DNA of 64,000 bases from Elusimicrobiota bacterium (lineage in GTDB: Bacteria > Elusimicrobiota > Elusimicrobia > UBA1565 > UBA9628): positions 43,526 to 107,525 of the forward strand of contig DAHVNA010000001.1 in the NCBI GenBank assembly GCA_027319565.1, written 5' to 3'. Position 1 is the stretch's first letter, and every line of letters begins with the position of its first letter. The notes beneath the pieces are model-generated. The model was not told the DNA's origin, made no database searches, and worked only from the letters and a program-made list of their open reading frames with translations. Shown in pieces: positions 22,633 to 30,400 of this stretch. Position numbers and translations under genes: made by a program.

Positions 22633-24423
22633 ATGAAAACAATTAAGCACAAAGAGCTTGAAAGTTGGGTTAACGAGACGGCCAAAGTAGGCGAGCCGGA
22701 CCAAGTTTATTGGGTGGACGGGACTCCCGCAGAAAAAGATCGTCTGACCAAAAGAGCCATTGCCCGCGGTTTTATCATCCCCTTAGACCAAGAAAAATAT
22801 CCCGGTTGTTATTACAGCCGTTCCCACTCCAATGATGTCGCCCGCACCGAGCATTTGACCTATATCTGCGCCAAAAATAAGGAAGACGCGGGGCCGACCA
22901 ACAATTGGATGTCGCCGGAGGAGGGTTACGCGAAATCAAAAGAGATATTGAAAGGCTCGATGCATGGTCGGACGATGTATGTGATTCCCTTTTCGATGGG
23001 GCCCATTGGGTCTCCGTTTTCAAAAATCGGGGTTGAGATTACCGATTCTCTCTATGTCGTTTTAAACATGCTGATTATGACGAGAGTCGGAGACAAGGTC
23101 TTGGATCAATTGGGAACAGACGGAGCCTACACTAAATGCCTGCACACCCGGGCGGATCTTGATGTTCAACACCGTTTCATCCTTCATTTTCCGGAGGATA
23201 ATGCCATTGTCTCGACCGGGTCGGCCTACGGCGGAAACGCCCTTTTAGGAAAAAAATGCCTGGCCTTGCGCATCGCCTCTTGGCAGGCGAGAGAGGAGAA
23301 ATGGCTGGCCGAGCATATGCTGATCTTGGGCATTGAAAAAGACGGCAAGACCGAATATGTGGTAGCGGCTTTTCCTTCCGCTTGCGGAAAGACCAATCTC
23401 GCGATGTTGATTCCGCCAGAAGGGCTCAAGGGCAAGAATTACAAAATCTGGACCTTGGGAGATGATATCGCCTGGCTGAGAAAAGGGAAAGACGGGCGTT
23501 TATGGGCTTTAAATCCGGAATCGGGCTTTTTCGGGGTCGCTCCGGGCACCAATTCAAAAACCAATCCCAACGCGATGAAGACGATGAGTCAAAATACGAT
23601 TTTTACCAACGTCCTTTTGGGAGATGATCTCACTGTTTGGTGGGAGGATGGCGAAGGTCAGCCTCCCTCTTCGGGCGTCGCTTGGGATGGAAAACCTTGG
23701 AAGCCGGGAATGAAAGACTCTTCCGGTAAGCCCGTCTTGGGCGCTCATCCCAATAGCCGCTTTACCTCTCCGGCCGGTCAATGCCCCTCGATCGCCCCCA
23801 ATTGGGAAGACCCCCGGGGCGTGCCCATCTCGGCGGTTATTTTCGGCGGAAGGCGAGAGCGCTTGGCGCCCTTGGTTTTTGAATCCTTCGATTGGACTCA
23901 TGGAGTTTACGTCGGAGCGACGATGGCTTCCGAAAGAACCGCGGCCGCCGATGGAAAAGTCGGCGAGGTGCGCCGGGATCCGATGGCGATGATTCCATTT
24001 TGTGGATACAATATGGGCGATTATTTCGCTCATTGGCTCGAAATGGGGCGCGAGATTTCAAAACCTCCGAAGATCTTTCACGTCAATTGGTTCAGAAAAG
24101 ACGAAAACCGGAAATTTCTCTGGCCCGGCTACGGGGAGAATTTGCGCGTTCTTGAATGGATTTTGGCCCGCTGCCGAGGGGAAGGAAAAGCCCAAAAAAC
24201 TCCGATCGGCTTTGTCCCGTCTTCTGACGCCTTGGACCTGTCGGGGCTTAATATTCCAAAAGAGACGATTGATAAGCTTCTTGAGGTTCGCTCCGAAGAC
24301 TGGGTTTCCGAGCTCGATGGCGTTAAAAGCTTCTTTGAAAAATTTGGGGATAGCTTGCCCAAGGAACTTTGGAAGCAGTTTGAGGAGCTCAAAAGCCGCC
24401 TTCAATCCAAGGTCGCGGCTTAG
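22633..24423 (+). CDS. pckG: Phosphoenolpyruvate carboxykinase (GTP)
   Basis: YGGNALLGKKC, FPSACGKTNLAM, GDDIAW, NPESGFFGVAPGT. Confidence 0.96.
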   Translation: MKTIKHKELESWVNETAKVGEPDQVYWVDGTPAEKDRLTKRAIARGFIIPLDQEKYPGCYYSRSHSNDVARTEHLTYICAKNKEDAGPTNNWMSPEEGYAKSKEILKGSMHGRTMYVIPFSMGPIGSPFSKIGVEITDSLYVVLNMLIMTRVGDKVLDQLGTDGAYTKCLHTRADLDVQHRFILHFPEDNAIVSTGSAYGGNALLGKKCLALRIASWQAREEKWLAEHMLILGIEKDGKTEYVVAAFPSACGKTNLAMLIPPEGLKGKNYKIWTLGDDIAWLRKGKDGRLWALNPESGFFGVAPGTNSKTNPNAMKTMSQNTIFTNVLLGDDLTVWWEDGEGQPPSSGVAWDGKPWKPGMKDSSGKPVLGAHPNSRFTSPAGQCPSIAPNWEDPRGVPISAVIFGGRRERLAPLVFESFDWTHGVYVGATMASERTAAADGKVGEVRRDPMAMIPFCGYNMGDYFAHWLEMGREISKPPKIFHVNWFRKDENRKFLWPGYGENLRVLEWILARCRGEGKAQKTPIGFVPSSDALDLSGLNIPKETIDKLLEVRSEDWVSELDGVKSFFEKFGDSLPKELWKQFEELKSRLQSKVAA

Positions 24424-24637
24424 TGTTTGTTGCGAGCCCTAAGATCGGGGTTTTTTCCGCTATGAGCGGAATACACTTGATACCAAAACGCAGACTTGGA
24501 TCGGCGATTCGGTAGAGCACGTTCTTCGGGTTGCGCTCCGATTGGCCGAGAGGTTAATTATCCTTGTCAAGGATAATCCAGACAAAGGATAACATGAATC
24601 TAAAAGTAACTGCTCAGGCCAAGGGAAATCTATCGCG

Positions 24638-24732
24638 TTCTCCCTCTCCCTTGACGGGAGAGGGAGGGGTGAGGGTGAGCGAAGCTCATCGTCACCCCCC
24701 ATCCTAACCTTCCCCCGCAGGGGGGGAAGGAA
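24638..24732. repeat. REP-like palindromic doublet (inverted pair of ~38-bp units)
   Basis: CCCTCTCCC-ttgac-GGGAGAGGG...GGGTGA, central TGAGC-GAA-GCTCA, then an inverted related unit TCACCCCCC...CCTTCCCCC-gca-GGGGGGGAAGG. Confidence 0.75.
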
Positions 24733-24763
24733 ATTAACAAAGAGCCTGAGCAGCTATGAGAAT

Positions 24764-24814
24764 TTACCCCAAGAGGGCGACGAGCTTGCTGGGAGACGCG
24801 GCGCCGCGGACGAT
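24764..24814 (-). repeat. Displaced 3' end of the DUF167 gene (att-like direct repeat)
   Basis: Encodes IVRGAASPSKLVALLG*; 43/51 nt identical to 29247-29297. Confidence 0.85.
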
Positions 24815-24903
24815 CTATGTTTGGCACAATAAACAACTTCTCGGAGTTTTAGCGATCGCCAGAATATTTTTCGAGATTTTATTGGGATTTTACTGCTTCG
24901 TTA

Positions 24904-25431
24904 TTACTCGGGACAGTCTAACAATGCCTTTTCAAATTCTTCCACAAATTTTACAGCTCTTTGATAAAGCTCATATACTTCTTGTCCTGTTTGTTCTATG
25001 TGGTAGGCGGCGAAGTTTTTATGTGCCAATTCGTTCCTTAACCCCCCAATTTGGATAAATGAACGGATGGCTTCCTCTAATTCCTGCTCATTCTTAATCT
25101 TGACTTGAAAGCTTGTTGAAAAATTGTCGCCAAATAGTTTTAAAAATTTATTTGCGTTTTGCGCTTCCCAGTCGAAATATGTGTGATATTGTCTGGAAAT
25201 CGCTTTTGCTTCCATCAGCGCCTTAATTTTTGAATTATCCTGAGAAGCTTGTAATACAAAATTTCGAATAATCTCCTGAATACGCGTCTCAAAATAGCTT
25301 GCGGCTGACATGATCAAAATTTTCTTGAGTTTATTGTCAGCATCAATAAATAGTGAAATCTCGTTTTTAGATTTAAGAAACTCCAATATCCCTGAATTTT
25401 CCTCATACAAGTTGTCAATTGGTGTCGACAC
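24904..25431 (-). CDS. HEPN-domain putative RNase (RiboL-PSP/MAE_28990-like)
   Basis: Rx4H motif RNELAH; N-terminal ASYFE helix; all-alpha appearance; subfamily tentative. Confidence 0.75.
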   Translation of the reverse strand: MSTPIDNLYEENSGILEFLKSKNEISLFIDADNKLKKILIMSAASYFETRIQEIIRNFVLQASQDNSKIKALMEAKAISRQYHTYFDWEAQNANKFLKLFGDNFSTSFQVKIKNEQELEEAIRSFIQIGGLRNELAHKNFAAYHIEQTGQEVYELYQRAVKFVEEFEKALLDCPE

Positions 25432-25438
25432 TTTTGAG

Positions 25439-26611
25439 TTAATAAGATGGGAGAAGCTCTTTTGCTCGTTTGAGCCTCAAATTGACTTTTGCCTTGTTCG
25501 TGGTTTGTGATTTTATTGCGCTAAGAAAGTCGTCATCTTTCTTTAGAGCCGCTAGTTGGTCGGTAGTAAAGTCCTTTTTTACCAGTTCTTTCTTTTGGAA
25601 CGCTGGCGAGCATATTGCGTAAAAAACCGCCTCATAAATCGTGATATTGAATCTCCCGGGTTTCAGCGTAAACACAGCAGGATCGACAGAAGCGATGGAT
25701 TTTAGGAACGAGGCAAACATTTTTCGTCTGTAGCTGATGTCTGCGTCGCTTAAAGATTTACATTGTTTTGAAAACTCGTTTAGAAAGATTGTCATGGAGG
25801 AAGAGTATTTTTCGCTATTTTCCAACATGGCGAATCCCCTTAACAAAACCTCGATATCCTTCATTCGGATATCCAGCTGGGGAGATGCAAGTAGCTTTCT
25901 CCACTGGGAATCTCTATTTAGCTCGGCCAGAAGCTCATAAAACTTAGAGTGATAAAGACTTGCGCGAATTTCTTGCGCCGCTAGGTTAACTCCACCAGAA
26001 TTCAGTCTGCTGAATATCTCGTAAATTGAAGAGTCTCCTTCCGGGGAGCTTTGCTTCAAGATTATATTCCTAATGGTCCTCAGATCGAATGTTGATCTAG
26101 TTTCCTCTGTAAGCGTTTTGTAATTGAGGCCATCCAGTGGTCGCCGTTTATCCGGGTCGATTTTTTTTAGCCGGAGATTAAAGTTGCCAAAGTAATTGTC
26201 ATTGGCAAGTATTTCATCCGGAATGATCCCGTCTTTGTTGTATATCTGCCGCATCTCTATGCGCTTTTCGTCTTTGGGAAAGCGACCTATCACAAAAAAA
26301 TAAATACTTAGCAGGCGTTGCTGCCCATCTACTACAAGAAATTTATTCTTAATTCTAACTTCCTCGAAAAGAAATATCTGTGGTATTGGCAATCCTAGAA
26401 TGATCGATTCGATAAGCTTAGATGCGCGTTTTATGTCCCACACGTAATGTCTTTGAAAAGGAGGGAGCTTAAATGTTCCCTTTTGTATGAAATCAAATAT
26501 GGTTTTAATGTTGAAATCATTTGGAGCGGAGATAATGTCGTATTCATTAATTCCAATGCCTTCTTCCTGATCCGCCTCGTCCTTATCAAGCCATCCATTG
26601 TCTTCTTCCAT
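25439..26611 (-). CDS. DUF262 (GmrS/ParB-like) domain protein
   Basis: PPFQRHYVW, LIESIILGLPIP, VDGQQRL, IFSRLNSGG; GGAGG RBS before ATG 26611. Confidence 0.88.
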   Translation of the reverse strand: MEEDNGWLDKDEADQEEGIGINEYDIISAPNDFNIKTIFDFIQKGTFKLPPFQRHYVWDIKRASKLIESIILGLPIPQIFLFEEVRIKNKFLVVDGQQRLLSIYFFVIGRFPKDEKRIEMRQIYNKDGIIPDEILANDNYFGNFNLRLKKIDPDKRRPLDGLNYKTLTEETRSTFDLRTIRNIILKQSSPEGDSSIYEIFSRLNSGGVNLAAQEIRASLYHSKFYELLAELNRDSQWRKLLASPQLDIRMKDIEVLLRGFAMLENSEKYSSSMTIFLNEFSKQCKSLSDADISYRRKMFASFLKSIASVDPAVFTLKPGRFNITIYEAVFYAICSPAFQKKELVKKDFTTDQLAALKKDDDFLSAIKSQTTNKAKVNLRLKRAKELLPSY

Positions 26612-26628
26612 TTCAATCCTCCAAAAAA

Positions 26629-27045
26629 TTATTTCTGTATTTTCCTTAACATGCGCGTTTGGCATGACTTGGGCATTAGGCGCACGTCATGCTCCCAGAT
26701 GCGCGCGATTTCCCAGCCATGCTTTTTGAGTTCGCGATTCTGTTTCTGATCGCGTCGCATATTGCCAGCGATTTTCTTCTCCCAATATTTTTTGTTGGAC
26801 TGGGGACGTAGATTGCGCGTACAATGGGCGCAGCCATGCCAAAAGCAACCGTCCACGAAAATGGCGAGCTTTTTCTTTGGAAAAACGATATCCGGAGCGC
26901 CGGGCAAGCCCCGCCCATTCGTCGTCCAGCCTCGAATCCCTTTGGAAATAAGCCAGCCTCGTAGTCGCAATTCGGTCGAGCGCGTTCCAGTCGATTTAAT
27001 GGCGGACATGATCTTTGACCGCTTCGCGCGAGAGACGGTGTCCAT
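26629..27045 (-). CDS. vsr: Very short patch repair endonuclease
   Basis: MDTVSRAKRSKIMSAIKS, LPGAPDIV, FVDGCFWHG, IWEH. Confidence 0.93.
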   Translation of the reverse strand: MDTVSRAKRSKIMSAIKSTGTRSTELRLRGWLISKGIRGWTTNGRGLPGAPDIVFPKKKLAIFVDGCFWHGCAHCTRNLRPQSNKKYWEKKIAGNMRRDQKQNRELKKHGWEIARIWEHDVRLMPKSCQTRMLRKIQK

Positions 27046-27049
27046 CCCA

Positions 27050-27826
27050 TTATTCGCCGCGGTGAACCCTAATCCATGAAGGATCGAAGCTCATTTCTTT
27101 CAATACCGCGGCCGCGGATAAATGCGGCGGTCTACGGACGCTAAATCGCAAGCGATTGGTCGGGACGTTCTCTATTATGGTGAATTGAGAGCCGGTAAAT
27201 TGCCATGTGAATCGATGTTGGTTTGTTTGGCGGTCGTATCCTTCCAGATTTTTACGCTTATTCATTTTCCACTGGAATTGGTCTGGCGGGTACATGATAG
27301 TTTCCGTTTCGAACGCGGTGAATTCGGAAAGGTCCGGCCCTTTGATGAGGACGACTGTTCGCATATGAGCGTATCGCGCTCGGAGATTCCCGACTCGCTC
27401 GTTCCATATTTTTAAGACGTCAGAGCCGATGCTCTGCGGATCTCTTTGCATATCGCGTTCATCAAAAGAATATGCGGGAGAGTTTCTTCCGGAAATAAGG
27501 CGAATCTTTGTTATCTCGAAGGGTTTGTTCCCTTTGACCGTTTTCGCGCCCCACGCGCAATTGCCCATGATGACGTCATCCAGTCCGACGTTCGACGGCT
27601 TCCATTCGGCCCCAATCGCGACGGCGAATATTCGTTCCCAAACGCGGCCTTCTATATCTGGTTGCCTGCCGGGGAGACCGCAGAGGGGGTCGGTCGCTAG
27701 GATATAGACTATTTCCCGTCCAACATTTAGGGCGAAGTCGCGGGGGAAAACGTTCAAAGGATAGGGCGGCGGGACTCTCTCGACCGTTCGGACGCGCGGA
27801 CGTTTTTCGGGCGTGGGCTCGGGCAT
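27050..27826 (-). CDS. Putative type II restriction endonuclease
   Basis: Lies between a C5 MTase and vsr; PD-(D/E)xK-like stretch E...GLDDVIMGNCAWGAKT. Confidence 0.65.
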   Translation of the reverse strand: MPEPTPEKRPRVRTVERVPPPYPLNVFPRDFALNVGREIVYILATDPLCGLPGRQPDIEGRVWERIFAVAIGAEWKPSNVGLDDVIMGNCAWGAKTVKGNKPFEITKIRLISGRNSPAYSFDERDMQRDPQSIGSDVLKIWNERVGNLRARYAHMRTVVLIKGPDLSEFTAFETETIMYPPDQFQWKMNKRKNLEGYDRQTNQHRFTWQFTGSQFTIIENVPTNRLRFSVRRPPHLSAAAVLKEMSFDPSWIRVHRGE

Positions 27827-27832
27827 TCTTTT

Positions 27833-28927
27833 CTACGCTAGAGCCATATCTCTAGAGTTTATGGTTTTTTTAGATTGGGACTTGACAGGGGTTAGAGCCT
27901 TATCCAGCCGCTCAAGAACGGCGCGGATAACGGGAACGGCCACGGAATTTCCCGCTTGTTTTCTTGTTTGGGAATCGTTCGAGACAATCTCATATGAGTC
28001 GGGGAAACCCTGGAGTCGCAACATTTCTCGGGGGGTGAGCCGCCTTTTGCCGTCGACTAAAAGGTAGTTGTATGAGGCTCCGGCGCGGAGAGCGCAAGAA
28101 AATGGATAGGAGCTAACGTGTCCGCCCTTGTTCTCGTGCCATATGGCGGGGCTAAACTTGCTCTTGTGGGCCGCCATGCGGCTTTTGACGATTCTCTCCG
28201 AGGTGAAATGTTTGGAGTCGACATTTTTTTCAAGTATCTCGGCCAAGGGTTTCATTGGCGCTCCGCCTGACGGCCATTCAAACTTGATGTCCTCCAAGGA
28301 GCCTACGATGAGTATTCGTTCTCTTTTCTGGGGCAATCCGAAGTCTAAAGCGTTAAGGACGCGCCAAGAGGTTTTGTAGCCCAGTTCCGTCAAGGTTTTT
28401 AGTATGGCGGAGAGCGTTTTGCCGTTATTGTGGCTGACAAGCCTGCGGACGTTTTCAAGGACGAAAGCGCGCGGTTTTTTTTCCTTAATGATGCGCGCGA
28501 TTTCAAAGAAAAGCGTTCCCCTTGCGTCGTCAAAGCCTTTCCCCTCGCCGATGATGCTGAAGGGTTGGCAGGGGAAACCCGCGAGAAGAACGTCATGGTC
28601 GGGGATGCTGGAAGCCGGTATCTGGTGGATGTCTCCGAGAGGCTTTAGTCCAAAGTTTCGCTCGTATGTCCTTCTCGCTTCATCATCGATGTCGGACGCC
28701 ATTTCGCATTGCCAACCGAGCGAATTCGCGGCTAAATGGAATCCGCCGATGCCACAGAATAAGTCAATGAACCGTAGGGGGACCGAGCGAGTCTCATAGT
28801 TCCCCTTGCTTTCACGCAACTGATTCTCTCTTGAGTTCCAGTGATGATTCTTCATCTTAACCTTCCCAATTATATCAAGTCTGCCGCGCGTTCGCGCTTC
28901 CTGATGCCTTTTGCGCGATTCAGTCAA
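27833..28927 (-). CDS. DNA (cytosine-5)-methyltransferase (true start may be downstream)
   Basis: FIDLFCGIGG, GFPCQPFS, ENV, QKRER, RRLTPRE, QAGNSV. Confidence 0.95.
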   Translation of the reverse strand: MTESRKRHQEARTRGRLDIIGKVKMKNHHWNSRENQLRESKGNYETRSVPLRFIDLFCGIGGFHLAANSLGWQCEMASDIDDEARRTYERNFGLKPLGDIHQIPASSIPDHDVLLAGFPCQPFSIIGEGKGFDDARGTLFFEIARIIKEKKPRAFVLENVRRLVSHNNGKTLSAILKTLTELGYKTSWRVLNALDFGLPQKRERILIVGSLEDIKFEWPSGGAPMKPLAEILEKNVDSKHFTSERIVKSRMAAHKSKFSPAIWHENKGGHVSSYPFSCALRAGASYNYLLVDGKRRLTPREMLRLQGFPDSYEIVSNDSQTRKQAGNSVAVPVIRAVLERLDKALTPVKSQSKKTINSRDMALA

Positions 28928-28945
28928 CTGGAGTGGCGCTAGATT

Positions 28946-29158
28946 TCAAAGTCGCTCGCAATTCGCGTATTTGATGCCCATCCTGTACGCTTTGTCTGCC
29001 GTTAAACGCTTTCCTTTCGACAGAATCGCGATCGTAGTAGAGACGATGCTCATCGCTCTTGAAACGGATTCGTCCGTGCCGCGTTCATCCAGTTTTGCCA
29101 GAGCGGACATCAACACGCTTTCCAATTCCATCGCATTGATTTTTCTCAGTTTTTTCAT
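28946..29158 (-). CDS. Small hypothetical protein, first gene of the island
   Basis: 70-aa ORF with a strong GGAGG RBS. Confidence 0.5.
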   Translation of the reverse strand: MKKLRKINAMELESVLMSALAKLDERGTDESVSRAMSIVSTTIAILSKGKRLTADKAYRMGIKYANCERL

Positions 29159-29246
29159 TTACCCGCCTCCTTCCTCATCCTTATTACGGGTTAGGGGGCA
29201 TATTTGTTCCCCGAACGTTTAGGTTTCGCGGCTTTGTTAGGAAAAA

Positions 29247-29471
29247 TTACCCAAGCAGGGCGACGAGCTTGCTGGGGGAACTCGCGCCGCGGACGATTTT
29301 AAGGCGCTTGGCTTTAACGCCGAGATGCTGGGCGAGAAGGGAGAGAACCGCGGCGTTGGCGCGGCCGTTTTCAGGTTTAGCCTTCACATCGATGGCGAAA
29401 GAATGCGGGGCCGTTGAAATTATGAAATTGCGGCGGGCTTCGGCGCGGACTTTAACCTTAAAGAGAGTCAT
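29247..29471 (-). CDS. DUF167/YggU (UPF0235) protein
   Basis: VKAKPENGRANAAV...IVRGASSPSK; overlaps the last ehr gene (ATGA). Confidence 0.85.
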   Translation of the reverse strand: MTLFKVKVRAEARRNFIISTAPHSFAIDVKAKPENGRANAAVLSLLAQHLGVKAKRLKIVRGASSPSKLVALLG

Positions 29472-30400
29472 GAGTTAATTGACCCCTCACCCTTGCCCTC
29501 TGCCTTCACTCGCGAAGCGAGAGCGTGCCGGAGCATCTTTGGGAAAGACGTTATGCTCCGGCCTCCCGCAAGGGGAGAGGGAGAAATAATGGTTTCTATT
29601 TTTTCTTCCAGTCGCCCGAGAAGCCTTAAAAGCCCGTCCAGGATTGTGAGGGGGTGGGGCGGGCATCCCGGAATGAAGAGATCCACTGGAACAAGCGCGG
29701 CCGCTCCTCCCAGATGCTCTTTAGAATCCATAAACGGCCCGCCGCTGATCGCGCAGGCGCCGATGGCGATGACGATTTTGGGCGCCGGAACCGCTTGATA
29801 GGCCAATTGAAGGGCCTCTTTCATATGATTGGTGACGGGCCCCGTGATGATAAGGCCGTCGGCGTGCCGGGGAGAAGCGACAAATTGAATGCCAAAGCGG
29901 CCCAAATCAAAGACGACATTGTTTAAGGCCGTTAATTCCGCCTCGCAGGCGCTGCAGCCCCCGGCGCTGACCTGCCTTAGTTTAAGGGAACGCCCAAAAA
30001 GGCGGCGCATTTCTTCTTTTAATGACGTGGCTAATTTCGCCTCTTGAGACTGGATGAGTAGATCTTCCCTTTGATTGGCGGCCAAGCGGTGATTGCAGGT
30101 AAAGACGATCGCGCCCTCCGGGCAACTTTTCGCGCACTCCCCGCAAAAAAGGCAGCGGCCCATATCCAAGGACAGGGTTTTTTTCTCGGGGTTATGTCCT
30201 TCTTGAAGGGCCTGGGTCGGGCATACGCTCAAACAATCGGCGCAGCCCGAGGCGCATAAATCTTGGTTGACTTCGGGGCGTCCGCGAAAACGTTCCGGAA
30301 ACTCCGGGTTTTCCTTTGGAAAATTCGAGGTTCGGTATCCCTGTTTGAAGCGGTTTTTGATGATTTCAATCATAGCGGTCTCATAAATCATGTCCGGCAT
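29468..30400 (-). CDS. Ehr/Hyf small subunit: 2[4Fe-4S] ferredoxin fused to NuoB-like domain (true start probably ~30373)
   Basis: CxxxCxxCxxxCP, CLFCGECAKSCP, AGGCSACEAE, SPRHAD, GACA, PGCPP. Confidence 0.88.
   Translation of the reverse strand: MPDMIYETAMIEIIKNRFKQGYRTSNFPKENPEFPERFRGRPEVNQDLCASGCADCLSVCPTQALQEGHNPEKKTLSLDMGRCLFCGECAKSCPEGAIVFTCNHRLAANQREDLLIQSQEAKLATSLKEEMRRLFGRSLKLRQVSAGGCSACEAELTALNNVVFDLGRFGIQFVASPRHADGLIITGPVTNHMKEALQLAYQAVPAPKIVIAIGACAISGGPFMDSKEHLGGAAALVPVDLFIPGCPPHPLTILDGLLRLLGRLEEKIETIISPSPLAGGRSITSFPKMLRHALASRVKAEGKGEGSINS
29483..29585. repeat. REP-like unit interrupted by a 63-bp hairpin insert, inside a CDS tail
   Basis: CCCCTCACCCTTGCCCTC + [63 bp] + TCCCGCAAGGGGAGAGGGAGAA, the reverse complement of the unit at 24638. 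Confidence 0.7.

Follow-up and report, generated by a model that had tools for sequence, protein, structure and literature searches.

The window analysed here is a 64,000-nucleotide stretch of an Elusimicrobiota genome (GCA_027319565.1, contig DAHVNA010000001.1) in which a 4.48-kb island unit of defence genes follows a DUF167/YggU-family gene, and the 3' end of that gene stands a second time at the far side of the cargo. We favour, with moderate confidence, the reading that this is a recombinase-free defence islet from a sister lineage, with one end probably set by homologous recombination and the other by an illegitimate joint. Five further genes of the same genome carry scars of the same form. 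A sequence-only reading of the window had proposed DUF167 as the attachment site (attB) of an integrase that was lost or acted in trans; use of DUF167 as a recurrent or dedicated attB is not supported by the loci compared below. The genome holding the window is labelled G000 (2.03 Mb in 111 contigs) and its five congeners G001-G005; C plus a number denotes a contig. The window's contig measures 224 kb and the cargo block between the two tails 4.4 kb.

The final 17 codons of DUF167 recur on the same strand beyond the cargo (table 1) with 43/51 nt identical, and four of the five changed codons are synonymous, the fifth exchanging Ser and Ala. Recomputation returned the same coordinates, identity, synonymous count and spacing as the sequence-only reading had given. 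The repeat in full comprises 60 nt at 82% identity (E 4e-11, within-window comparison): the match continues for 9 nt beyond the stop codon and ends abruptly on the upstream side, and an in-frame TAG lies just ahead of the displaced tail. Inside the repeat is a genome-unique 14-nt identical block, and no third copy of the tail exists in the whole genome. Enclosed by the repeat are a 70-aa open reading frame (ORF), a methylase, a family-less 258-aa ORF, Vsr, DUF262 and HEPN, in agreement with the earlier statement that only defence-type genes and one small ORF lie between the tails.

Both junctions are bridged by contigs of the public run X4 with 0 differences: one covers 24393-27182, linking PEP carboxykinase (PEPCK), displaced tail, HEPN, DUF262 and Vsr, and another covers 29076-29523, linking the working tail and the small ORF. 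Depth is even at the two island junctions (~16-17). Run X4 and the possible source samples come from one study, so the bridging counts against a mis-join without being independent evidence. Most of the cargo was also found in run X6 of another study, at ~91-93% identity and on separate contigs.

PEPCK was found in G000 and four of the five congeners, and what lies between it and the hydrogenase-like operon differs in each of these five genomes. G005 has one tail only, as the working end of its gene; this tail is closest to the displaced copy of G000 (45/51) and is 42/51 identical to the working one. There is no cargo in G005, and the tail is followed by a gene pair absent from G000 that we take to be HigB/HigA-like, the HigA match being weak and below the cut-off. 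G003 also has a single tail, closest to the working copy (44/51), and lacks the cargo save for a stub of ~120 nt matching the left end of the island, including the promoter motif and the first small-ORF codons, after which comes a HigB/HigA-like pair; a decayed tail of the displaced type after the stub was not significant (shuffle P 0.20). DUF167 is absent from this site in G004.

Both copies in a cargo-free relative would have refuted the sequence-only reading; neither G003 nor G005 carries both, and alignment across the congeners gives single-tail sites within an interval that exists in five different states. These sites support the claim of the sequence-only reading that the element supplied its own tail and displaced the native one: the island would be an insertion that brought a new DUF167 end, the working tail (type A) presumably having come with it and the displaced tail (type B) presumably being the resident one. 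Its description of the 3' end as recoded fares less well. The tails of G003 and G005 are identical at 41/51 nt, further apart than the two G000 copies, so that the "recoded" end is a sister-lineage allele and not an engineered recoding.

At four of the variable tail sites the upstream copy agrees with G003 and the downstream copy with G005, at one site the pairing is reversed, and at three the two G000 copies share a private state. Eight random substitutions in this tail would be expected to yield 5.1 amino acid changes, compared with one non-synonymous change observed (P 0.0007; one or fewer in 0.07% of 20,000 simulations). This scarcity indicates that the displaced tail was coding until recently. 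Judged by these patterns the two tails are alleles of different lineages, not a local duplicate.

In G001 (L130, C4:220400-230800) a 63%-GC inverted copy of the operon, which includes a DUF167 of its own, has taken the place of the operon and DUF167. Beside PEPCK stands an orphan DUF167 tail that is 32-34/51 identical to the type A and congener tails. The homology of this orphan stops no more than a few codons away from the joint in G000, making it the one second candidate for a reused crossover position. The opposite side of the foreign block has no matching DUF167 head, and the G001 event is therefore a replacement rather than an att-type insertion. The inverted operon copy adjoins a second ArsR-like gene.

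The G000 architecture is not confined to DUF167. Self-comparison of G000 identified further scars, in each of which a small insert separates a gene from an orphan copy of its own tail. The scan returned 38 repeat pairs, five of them labelled tail-downstream; C89 was dropped (a 70-aa ORF of doubtful reality), C30 (lost to a filter) and C22 (truncated at a contig end) were added, and C78 (intergenic repeat), C26 (tRNA half), C60 (insertion sequence, IS) and C66 were not counted. The resulting five scars, on C15, C30, C50, C22 and C56, have unrelated cargo, and for every one of them at least one of the five congeners has the site with a single tail.

On C15 a LOG-family gene has a 78-nt repeat and a 302-aa cargo protein of unknown function; a single tail is present in G001, G002, G004 and G005, and G003 has the cargo with no detectable repeat. 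The scar on C30 involves a DUF3108 gene, 76 nt and an AAA_16 ATPase, with a single tail in G001, G003, G004 and G005; a homologue of the ATPase, 91% identical, lies elsewhere in G003 without repeats. On C50 an ArsC-SBF gene with a 71-nt repeat and a DUF4143 ATPase as cargo has its single-tail counterpart in G003, and the site is filled in G005. There, 3.7 kb with the insert and both repeats (L091, C50:900-4600, against L108) is 98% identical, compared with 86-90% in the other compared flanks, indicating recent cross-species transfer. The C22 scar, in what we take to be an ABC ATPase-like gene, has a repeat of ~170 nt and TPR cargo. Both of its copies are also in G003, the cargo was not found in the other four congeners, and the copies match at 67/70 and 68/70 within genomes, compared with 64/70 between positional orthologues. 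Finally, on C56 (L097, C56:54131-62996) a presumably CusA-like gene has three tails, the orphans measuring 634 and ~85 nt with cargo between them, in a stacked array whose counterpart in G005 has a single tail.

Tail lengths over the six scarred genes, DUF167 included, range from 51 to 634 nt. Among the 12 repeat-bounded inserts of G000 no shared terminal repeats were found, except those of IS1634 itself. Synonymous changes prevail over non-synonymous ones on C56 (29/8; 0/20,000 simulations) and C50 (3/0, P 0.017) and marginally on C30 (3/1, P 0.057).

The cargo block has a counterpart at another locus. Between gcvP and a lipoate-ligase-like gene, G004 (L086 10842-13209) carries the methylase-nuclease-Vsr block and a HEPN remnant, and G001 (L083 7800-11283) an N4/N6 methylase restriction block, an unknown gene, a small ORF and SIR2; the interval is empty in G000 (C67:46963-47006). 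No flanking repeats were found at the gcvP cargo of either G001 or G004. Gene content indicates that this interval is a second defence hotspot. The N-terminus of the lipoate-ligase-like protein differs among G000, G001 and G004.

Under the favoured reading, the donor would have been sister-lineage DNA carrying DUF167 with its type A tail, the promoter and the cargo. A crossover would have taken place in homologous sequence of the operon or of the 5' part of DUF167, and the far end of the cargo would have been joined illegitimately to the recipient 51 nt ahead of the resident stop, leaving the resident tail stranded downstream. Joints at or before a stop remove nothing downstream, which would favour their survival. 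Exchange of sequence between the repeats would then be possible, as would spread of the unit via recombination in its flanks. We prefer this reading because the tails evolved as coding alleles, their site patterns match different congeners, and the five sister scars have varied lengths and no shared ends, and also because G004 has the methylase-nuclease-Vsr block at gcvP with no repeats around it. Also in its favour are the recent cross-species transfer at C50, the presence in G000 of a ComEC-family gene, the sole competence gene looked for, and the proposal of this model for displaced 3' ends at type VI secretion system and Rhs loci (PMC5361080).

Several observations weigh against acquisition by such a joint. 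At the C15 scar synonymous changes are not favoured (2/6, P 0.65). The orphan-tail break of G001, so close to the G000 joint, may point to a preferred position of breakage. The 38 pairs include no orphan head of a protein gene, compared with six protein-gene tail scars, a bias that a symmetric mechanism does not predict. The three sites private to both G000 copies require that later homogenisation or an unsampled donor be added, and the process is called rare in PMC5361080.

It is possible, though we consider it unlikely, that host functions loop tail and cargo out as a repeat-bounded circle and insert it at an orthologous tail in one crossover; the end product would be the same. The closer match of the C22 copies within a genome than between positional orthologues and the three private DUF167 sites both suggest exchange between repeats, and the H47 island of Escherichia coli excises and integrates without a recombinase of its own (PMC5426353). 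However, no circle junction or empty site was found among the contigs of four runs, in which rare forms are dropped, and the cargo occurs elsewhere without repeats. A repeat of 51 nt at 84% identity is a poor substrate for recombination, and the circle leaves the origin of the first repeat unexplained.

A site-specific integrase, since deleted or acting in trans, with DUF167 as its attB and the crossover in the 14-nt identical block, is quite unlikely. It would account for the sharp upstream edge, the genome-unique core and the second break near the same codons in G001, and G000 does possess seven tyrosine- and one serine-recombinase genes, all of them off the window's contig. As the sequence-only reading noted, no integrase lies between the tails; the entire 224-kb contig contains no tyrosine or serine recombinase either, a tblastn search with seven G000 recombinases giving just a tRNA-overlap artefact. 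The search of related DUF167 3' ends that had been suggested gave 0/32 loci with a match to these seven queries (25 loci having at least 5 kb downstream) and 0/31 testable loci with a same-strand tail copy, the 32 loci of this paralogue having been taken from the order. Orphan tails were found in 2/78 family genomes, G000 as positive control and G001 (profile search, E up to 0.5, at most 75 candidates scored per genome, which limits its sensitivity). The same search gave one weak C-terminal match (G008:C71, E 0.47) inside a 444-aa frame. The tail pattern was present in 0 viral contigs, and the genome contigs scanned yielded two single-tail records, near-identical records possibly lying outside the scan. 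A metagenome scan with the window's DUF167 confirmed nothing, and one with the small-ORF homologue gave one distant locus, L088. Moreover, the G001 event is a replacement, G004 lacks DUF167 at this site and carries the cargo at a repeat-less one, and the five other target genes, unrelated and with recombinase-free scars, would each need a lost integrase of their own.

The open-access literature, supplements excluded, contains no report that we could find of DUF167/yggU as an integration site, in keeping with what the sequence-only reading had surmised, and a search of the open-access literature for integrase-less islets gave no match. Nor does the evidence make DUF167 one: its use is not detectably recurrent, no recombinase was found at the related loci, and scars of the same kind lie at unrelated genes. 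The gene gains no special status.

Still more speculative, and in our judgement improbable, is an unrecognised host pathway, distinct from a site-bound tyrosine or serine integrase, that adds cassettes specifically behind the 3' ends of many different genes and regenerates their tails from incoming alleles. If true, it would explain six tail scars versus zero head scars of protein genes, the exchange of filled loci between species and the repeated use of the same genes, as with the three tails on C56 and the two breaks near one DUF167 codon. The 3'-only bias, if it held in larger samples, would point to a mechanism or a selection rule of which we found no description.

We regard it as very improbable that an IS1634-family transposase made the repeat as a long target-site duplication, cargo later taking the place of the IS and a sister allele that of one copy. 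G000 does encode an IS1634 transposase (NCBIfam E 6e-100) between 99%-identical direct repeats of at least 112 nt, and IS1634/IS1549 generate repeats of 8-514 bp (PMC2266710), but the island's contig has no IS1634-like inverted repeat (up to two mismatches) and a target duplication would decay neutrally, not synonymously. It is scarcely credible that two strains were joined in assembly or that the tail was simply duplicated in tandem on the spot: the assembly has 111 contigs, and the island is not covered end to end by any one public contig, but each junction is bridged without differences at even depth, both-copy scars exist in other genomes (G005 at C50, G003 at C22), and the allele patterns match different congeners.

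Architecturally the islet is of a known kind. Displaced ("orphan") 3' ends at Vibrio type VI secretion system effector-immunity and Rhs loci have been attributed to homology-facilitated illegitimate recombination (PMC5361080). On the favoured reading of the islet, in both cases the module is anchored by 5' homology, the resident 3' end is shifted downstream, the copies come from different lineages, no integrase is known and modules can be stacked, as on C56. Unlike those specialised loci, where a toxin domain is replaced, G000 has a near-identical tail restored at six ordinary genes, with unrelated cargo. The microcin H47 island (PMC5426353) and small variable segments (PMC2884548) share small size, imperfect direct repeats, absence of their own recombinase and empty sites in relatives; excision has been demonstrated for H47, whereas the G000 islet is known from sequence alone, and the repeats in PMC2884548 are mostly <30 bp, in contrast to the coding repeats of 51-634 nt in G000.

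The dusA-associated integrase islands (PMC4482086) likewise combine an intact target gene, a displaced fragment at the far end and variable cargo, but the integrase is their one universal feature and their site is common to >200 bacteria, whereas no integrase was found for the G000 islet, whose site shows no recurrence in the family. Hotspots without mobile elements that turn over via flank recombination (PMC5635113) resemble the operon-PEPCK interval, with five states in five genomes, and gcvP-lplA likewise in three; plain flank-to-flank replacement leaves no duplicated tail, unlike the DUF167 site. New here are the six-gene series in one small genome, the filled and empty states across congeners and the allele-level test. 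Where a gene has been restored and its tail displaced, the usual conclusion is an integrase attachment site; the six G000 scars, without recombinase, shared ends or fixed length, correct that view. They offer a route by which an uncultured gene-dense bacterium may gain defence genes of sister species without a mobile element's enzyme, and the filled and empty sites over five congeners constitute a ready comparative test.

Table 1. Features of the island and its flanks, in window coordinates
Feature	Coordinates	Strand	Observations
PEP carboxykinase (PEPCK), convergent conserved flank	22633..24423	+	PF00821/PF17297; in 4/5 congeners
Dispersed GC-rich hairpin repeat	24639..24756		copies on C37, C25, C97; starts ~7 nt beyond displaced stop
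Displaced DUF167 3' end, type B allele	24764..24814	-	repeat of the last 17 codons
RiboL-PSP HEPN protein, gene 2 of PD-T4-2-like pair	24904..25431	-	PF18735 E 7e-21; PADLOC PD-T4-2_B E 0.001
DUF262/GmrSD_N protein, gene 1 of PD-T4-2-like pair	25439..26665	-	PF03235 E 3e-32; PADLOC NsnA E 3e-58, PD-T4-2_A E 1e-41
Vsr mismatch endonuclease	26629..27045	-	PF03852; TIGR00632
258-aa ORF	27050..27826	-	flanked by methylase and Vsr here, in G004 (73%) and in L088
C5 cytosine DNA methyltransferase	27833..28927	-	PF00145 E 4e-88; PADLOC MTase_II E 1e-109; longest ORF
70-aa ORF	28946..29158	-	one other homologue at 86%; 53% homologue in another G001 defence cassette
GGAAC-N17-CGTAA motif heading the cassette	29184..29211	-	same arms ahead of defence cassettes in G001, G003, G004
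Working DUF167 3' end, type A allele	29247..29297	-	followed by left-end sequence as in G003
DUF167/YggU-family gene, 74 aa	29247..29471	-	PF02594 E 2e-16; TIGR00251
Fe-S subunit ending hydrogenase-like operon, other conserved flank	29468..30400	-	PF01058 + Fer4; syntenic in G003, G005, G004

Based on family matches, the island cargo likely consists of anti-phage genes. Methylase, nuclease and Vsr are laid out as in type II C5 restriction-modification systems with Vsr, the putative nuclease being without a family. This 258-aa ORF has no Pfam, PADLOC or NCBIfam match, and its nearest named Atlas clusters, RE_MamI/SmaI/ThaI at 0.85-0.87, are a lead only; together with its position in three loci they make it a likely cognate restriction endonuclease. 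The true start of the methyltransferase is probably later than that of the longest ORF. PD-T4-2 comprises two listed domains, DUF262 and PF18735 HEPN (PMC10952713), and genes for both are adjacent in the cargo; unlike PD-T4-2, the DUF262 protein scores higher to Menshen NsnA, and the HEPN match to PD-T4-2_B is weak. The GC content of the DUF262-HEPN pair is 39%, compared with 52% for the methylase block, equal to that of the flanks (52%), which suggests that the island is itself a mosaic.

The 70-aa ORF has no family match in Pfam, PADLOC or NCBIfam, and an Atlas search gave no usable match. It travels with the restriction-modification cargo, and its homologue in L088 adjoins the same nuclease and Vsr. 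A variant contig of run X6 joins 28898 directly to 29195, without the 70-aa ORF between promoter and methylase. DUF167 in the window is the final gene of the hydrogenase-like operon and the second, accessory paralogue of G000; the other, on C16, is 31% identical, and most relatives have two paralogues, of which the window's is the variable one.

The motif heading the cassette is likely its promoter, of a type that we take to be recognised by an extracytoplasmic function (ECF) sigma factor. A looser form, GGAAC-N16/17-CGTA(A/T), occurs 15 times in G000, mostly directly upstream of genes, two integrases and a tRNA among them (C19, C25, C26, C30, C31, C38, C46, C56 and other contigs). This set looks like an ECF-sigma regulon that also heads the defence cassettes in G001, G003 and G004. 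The 28-nt motif at 29184-29211 was also considered as a dif-like or att arm and rejected, since it heads the repeat-less gcvP cassettes of G001 and G004 and, in the looser form, many ordinary genes.

The dispersed hairpin repeat beside the displaced tail stands where G003 and G005 carry the HigB/HigA-like pair. This repeat and another at 29500-29565 represent two distinct dispersed hairpin families, just outside the two ends of the island, each with several copies in G000.

Three of the repeat pairs left out of the scar count have features of their own. On C26 (L094, C26:9976-13524) the 5' half of a tRNA-Met gene and its upstream DNA (80 nt, 100%) are repeated 1.75 kb upstream of the intact tRNA; the repeat surrounds a Fic gene, and a large serine recombinase lies on the other side. 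On C78 (L093, C78:15889-18307) a 51-nt intergenic repeat surrounds a BrnT/CopG-like pair and a 448-aa transposase-like ORF, and the site is single-copy in G003 and G005. The IS1634-family element on C60 (L095, C60:113-1983) has 16-nt inverted repeats, and the longer direct repeat around it (99% identical, at least 112 nt) is cut by the contig start.

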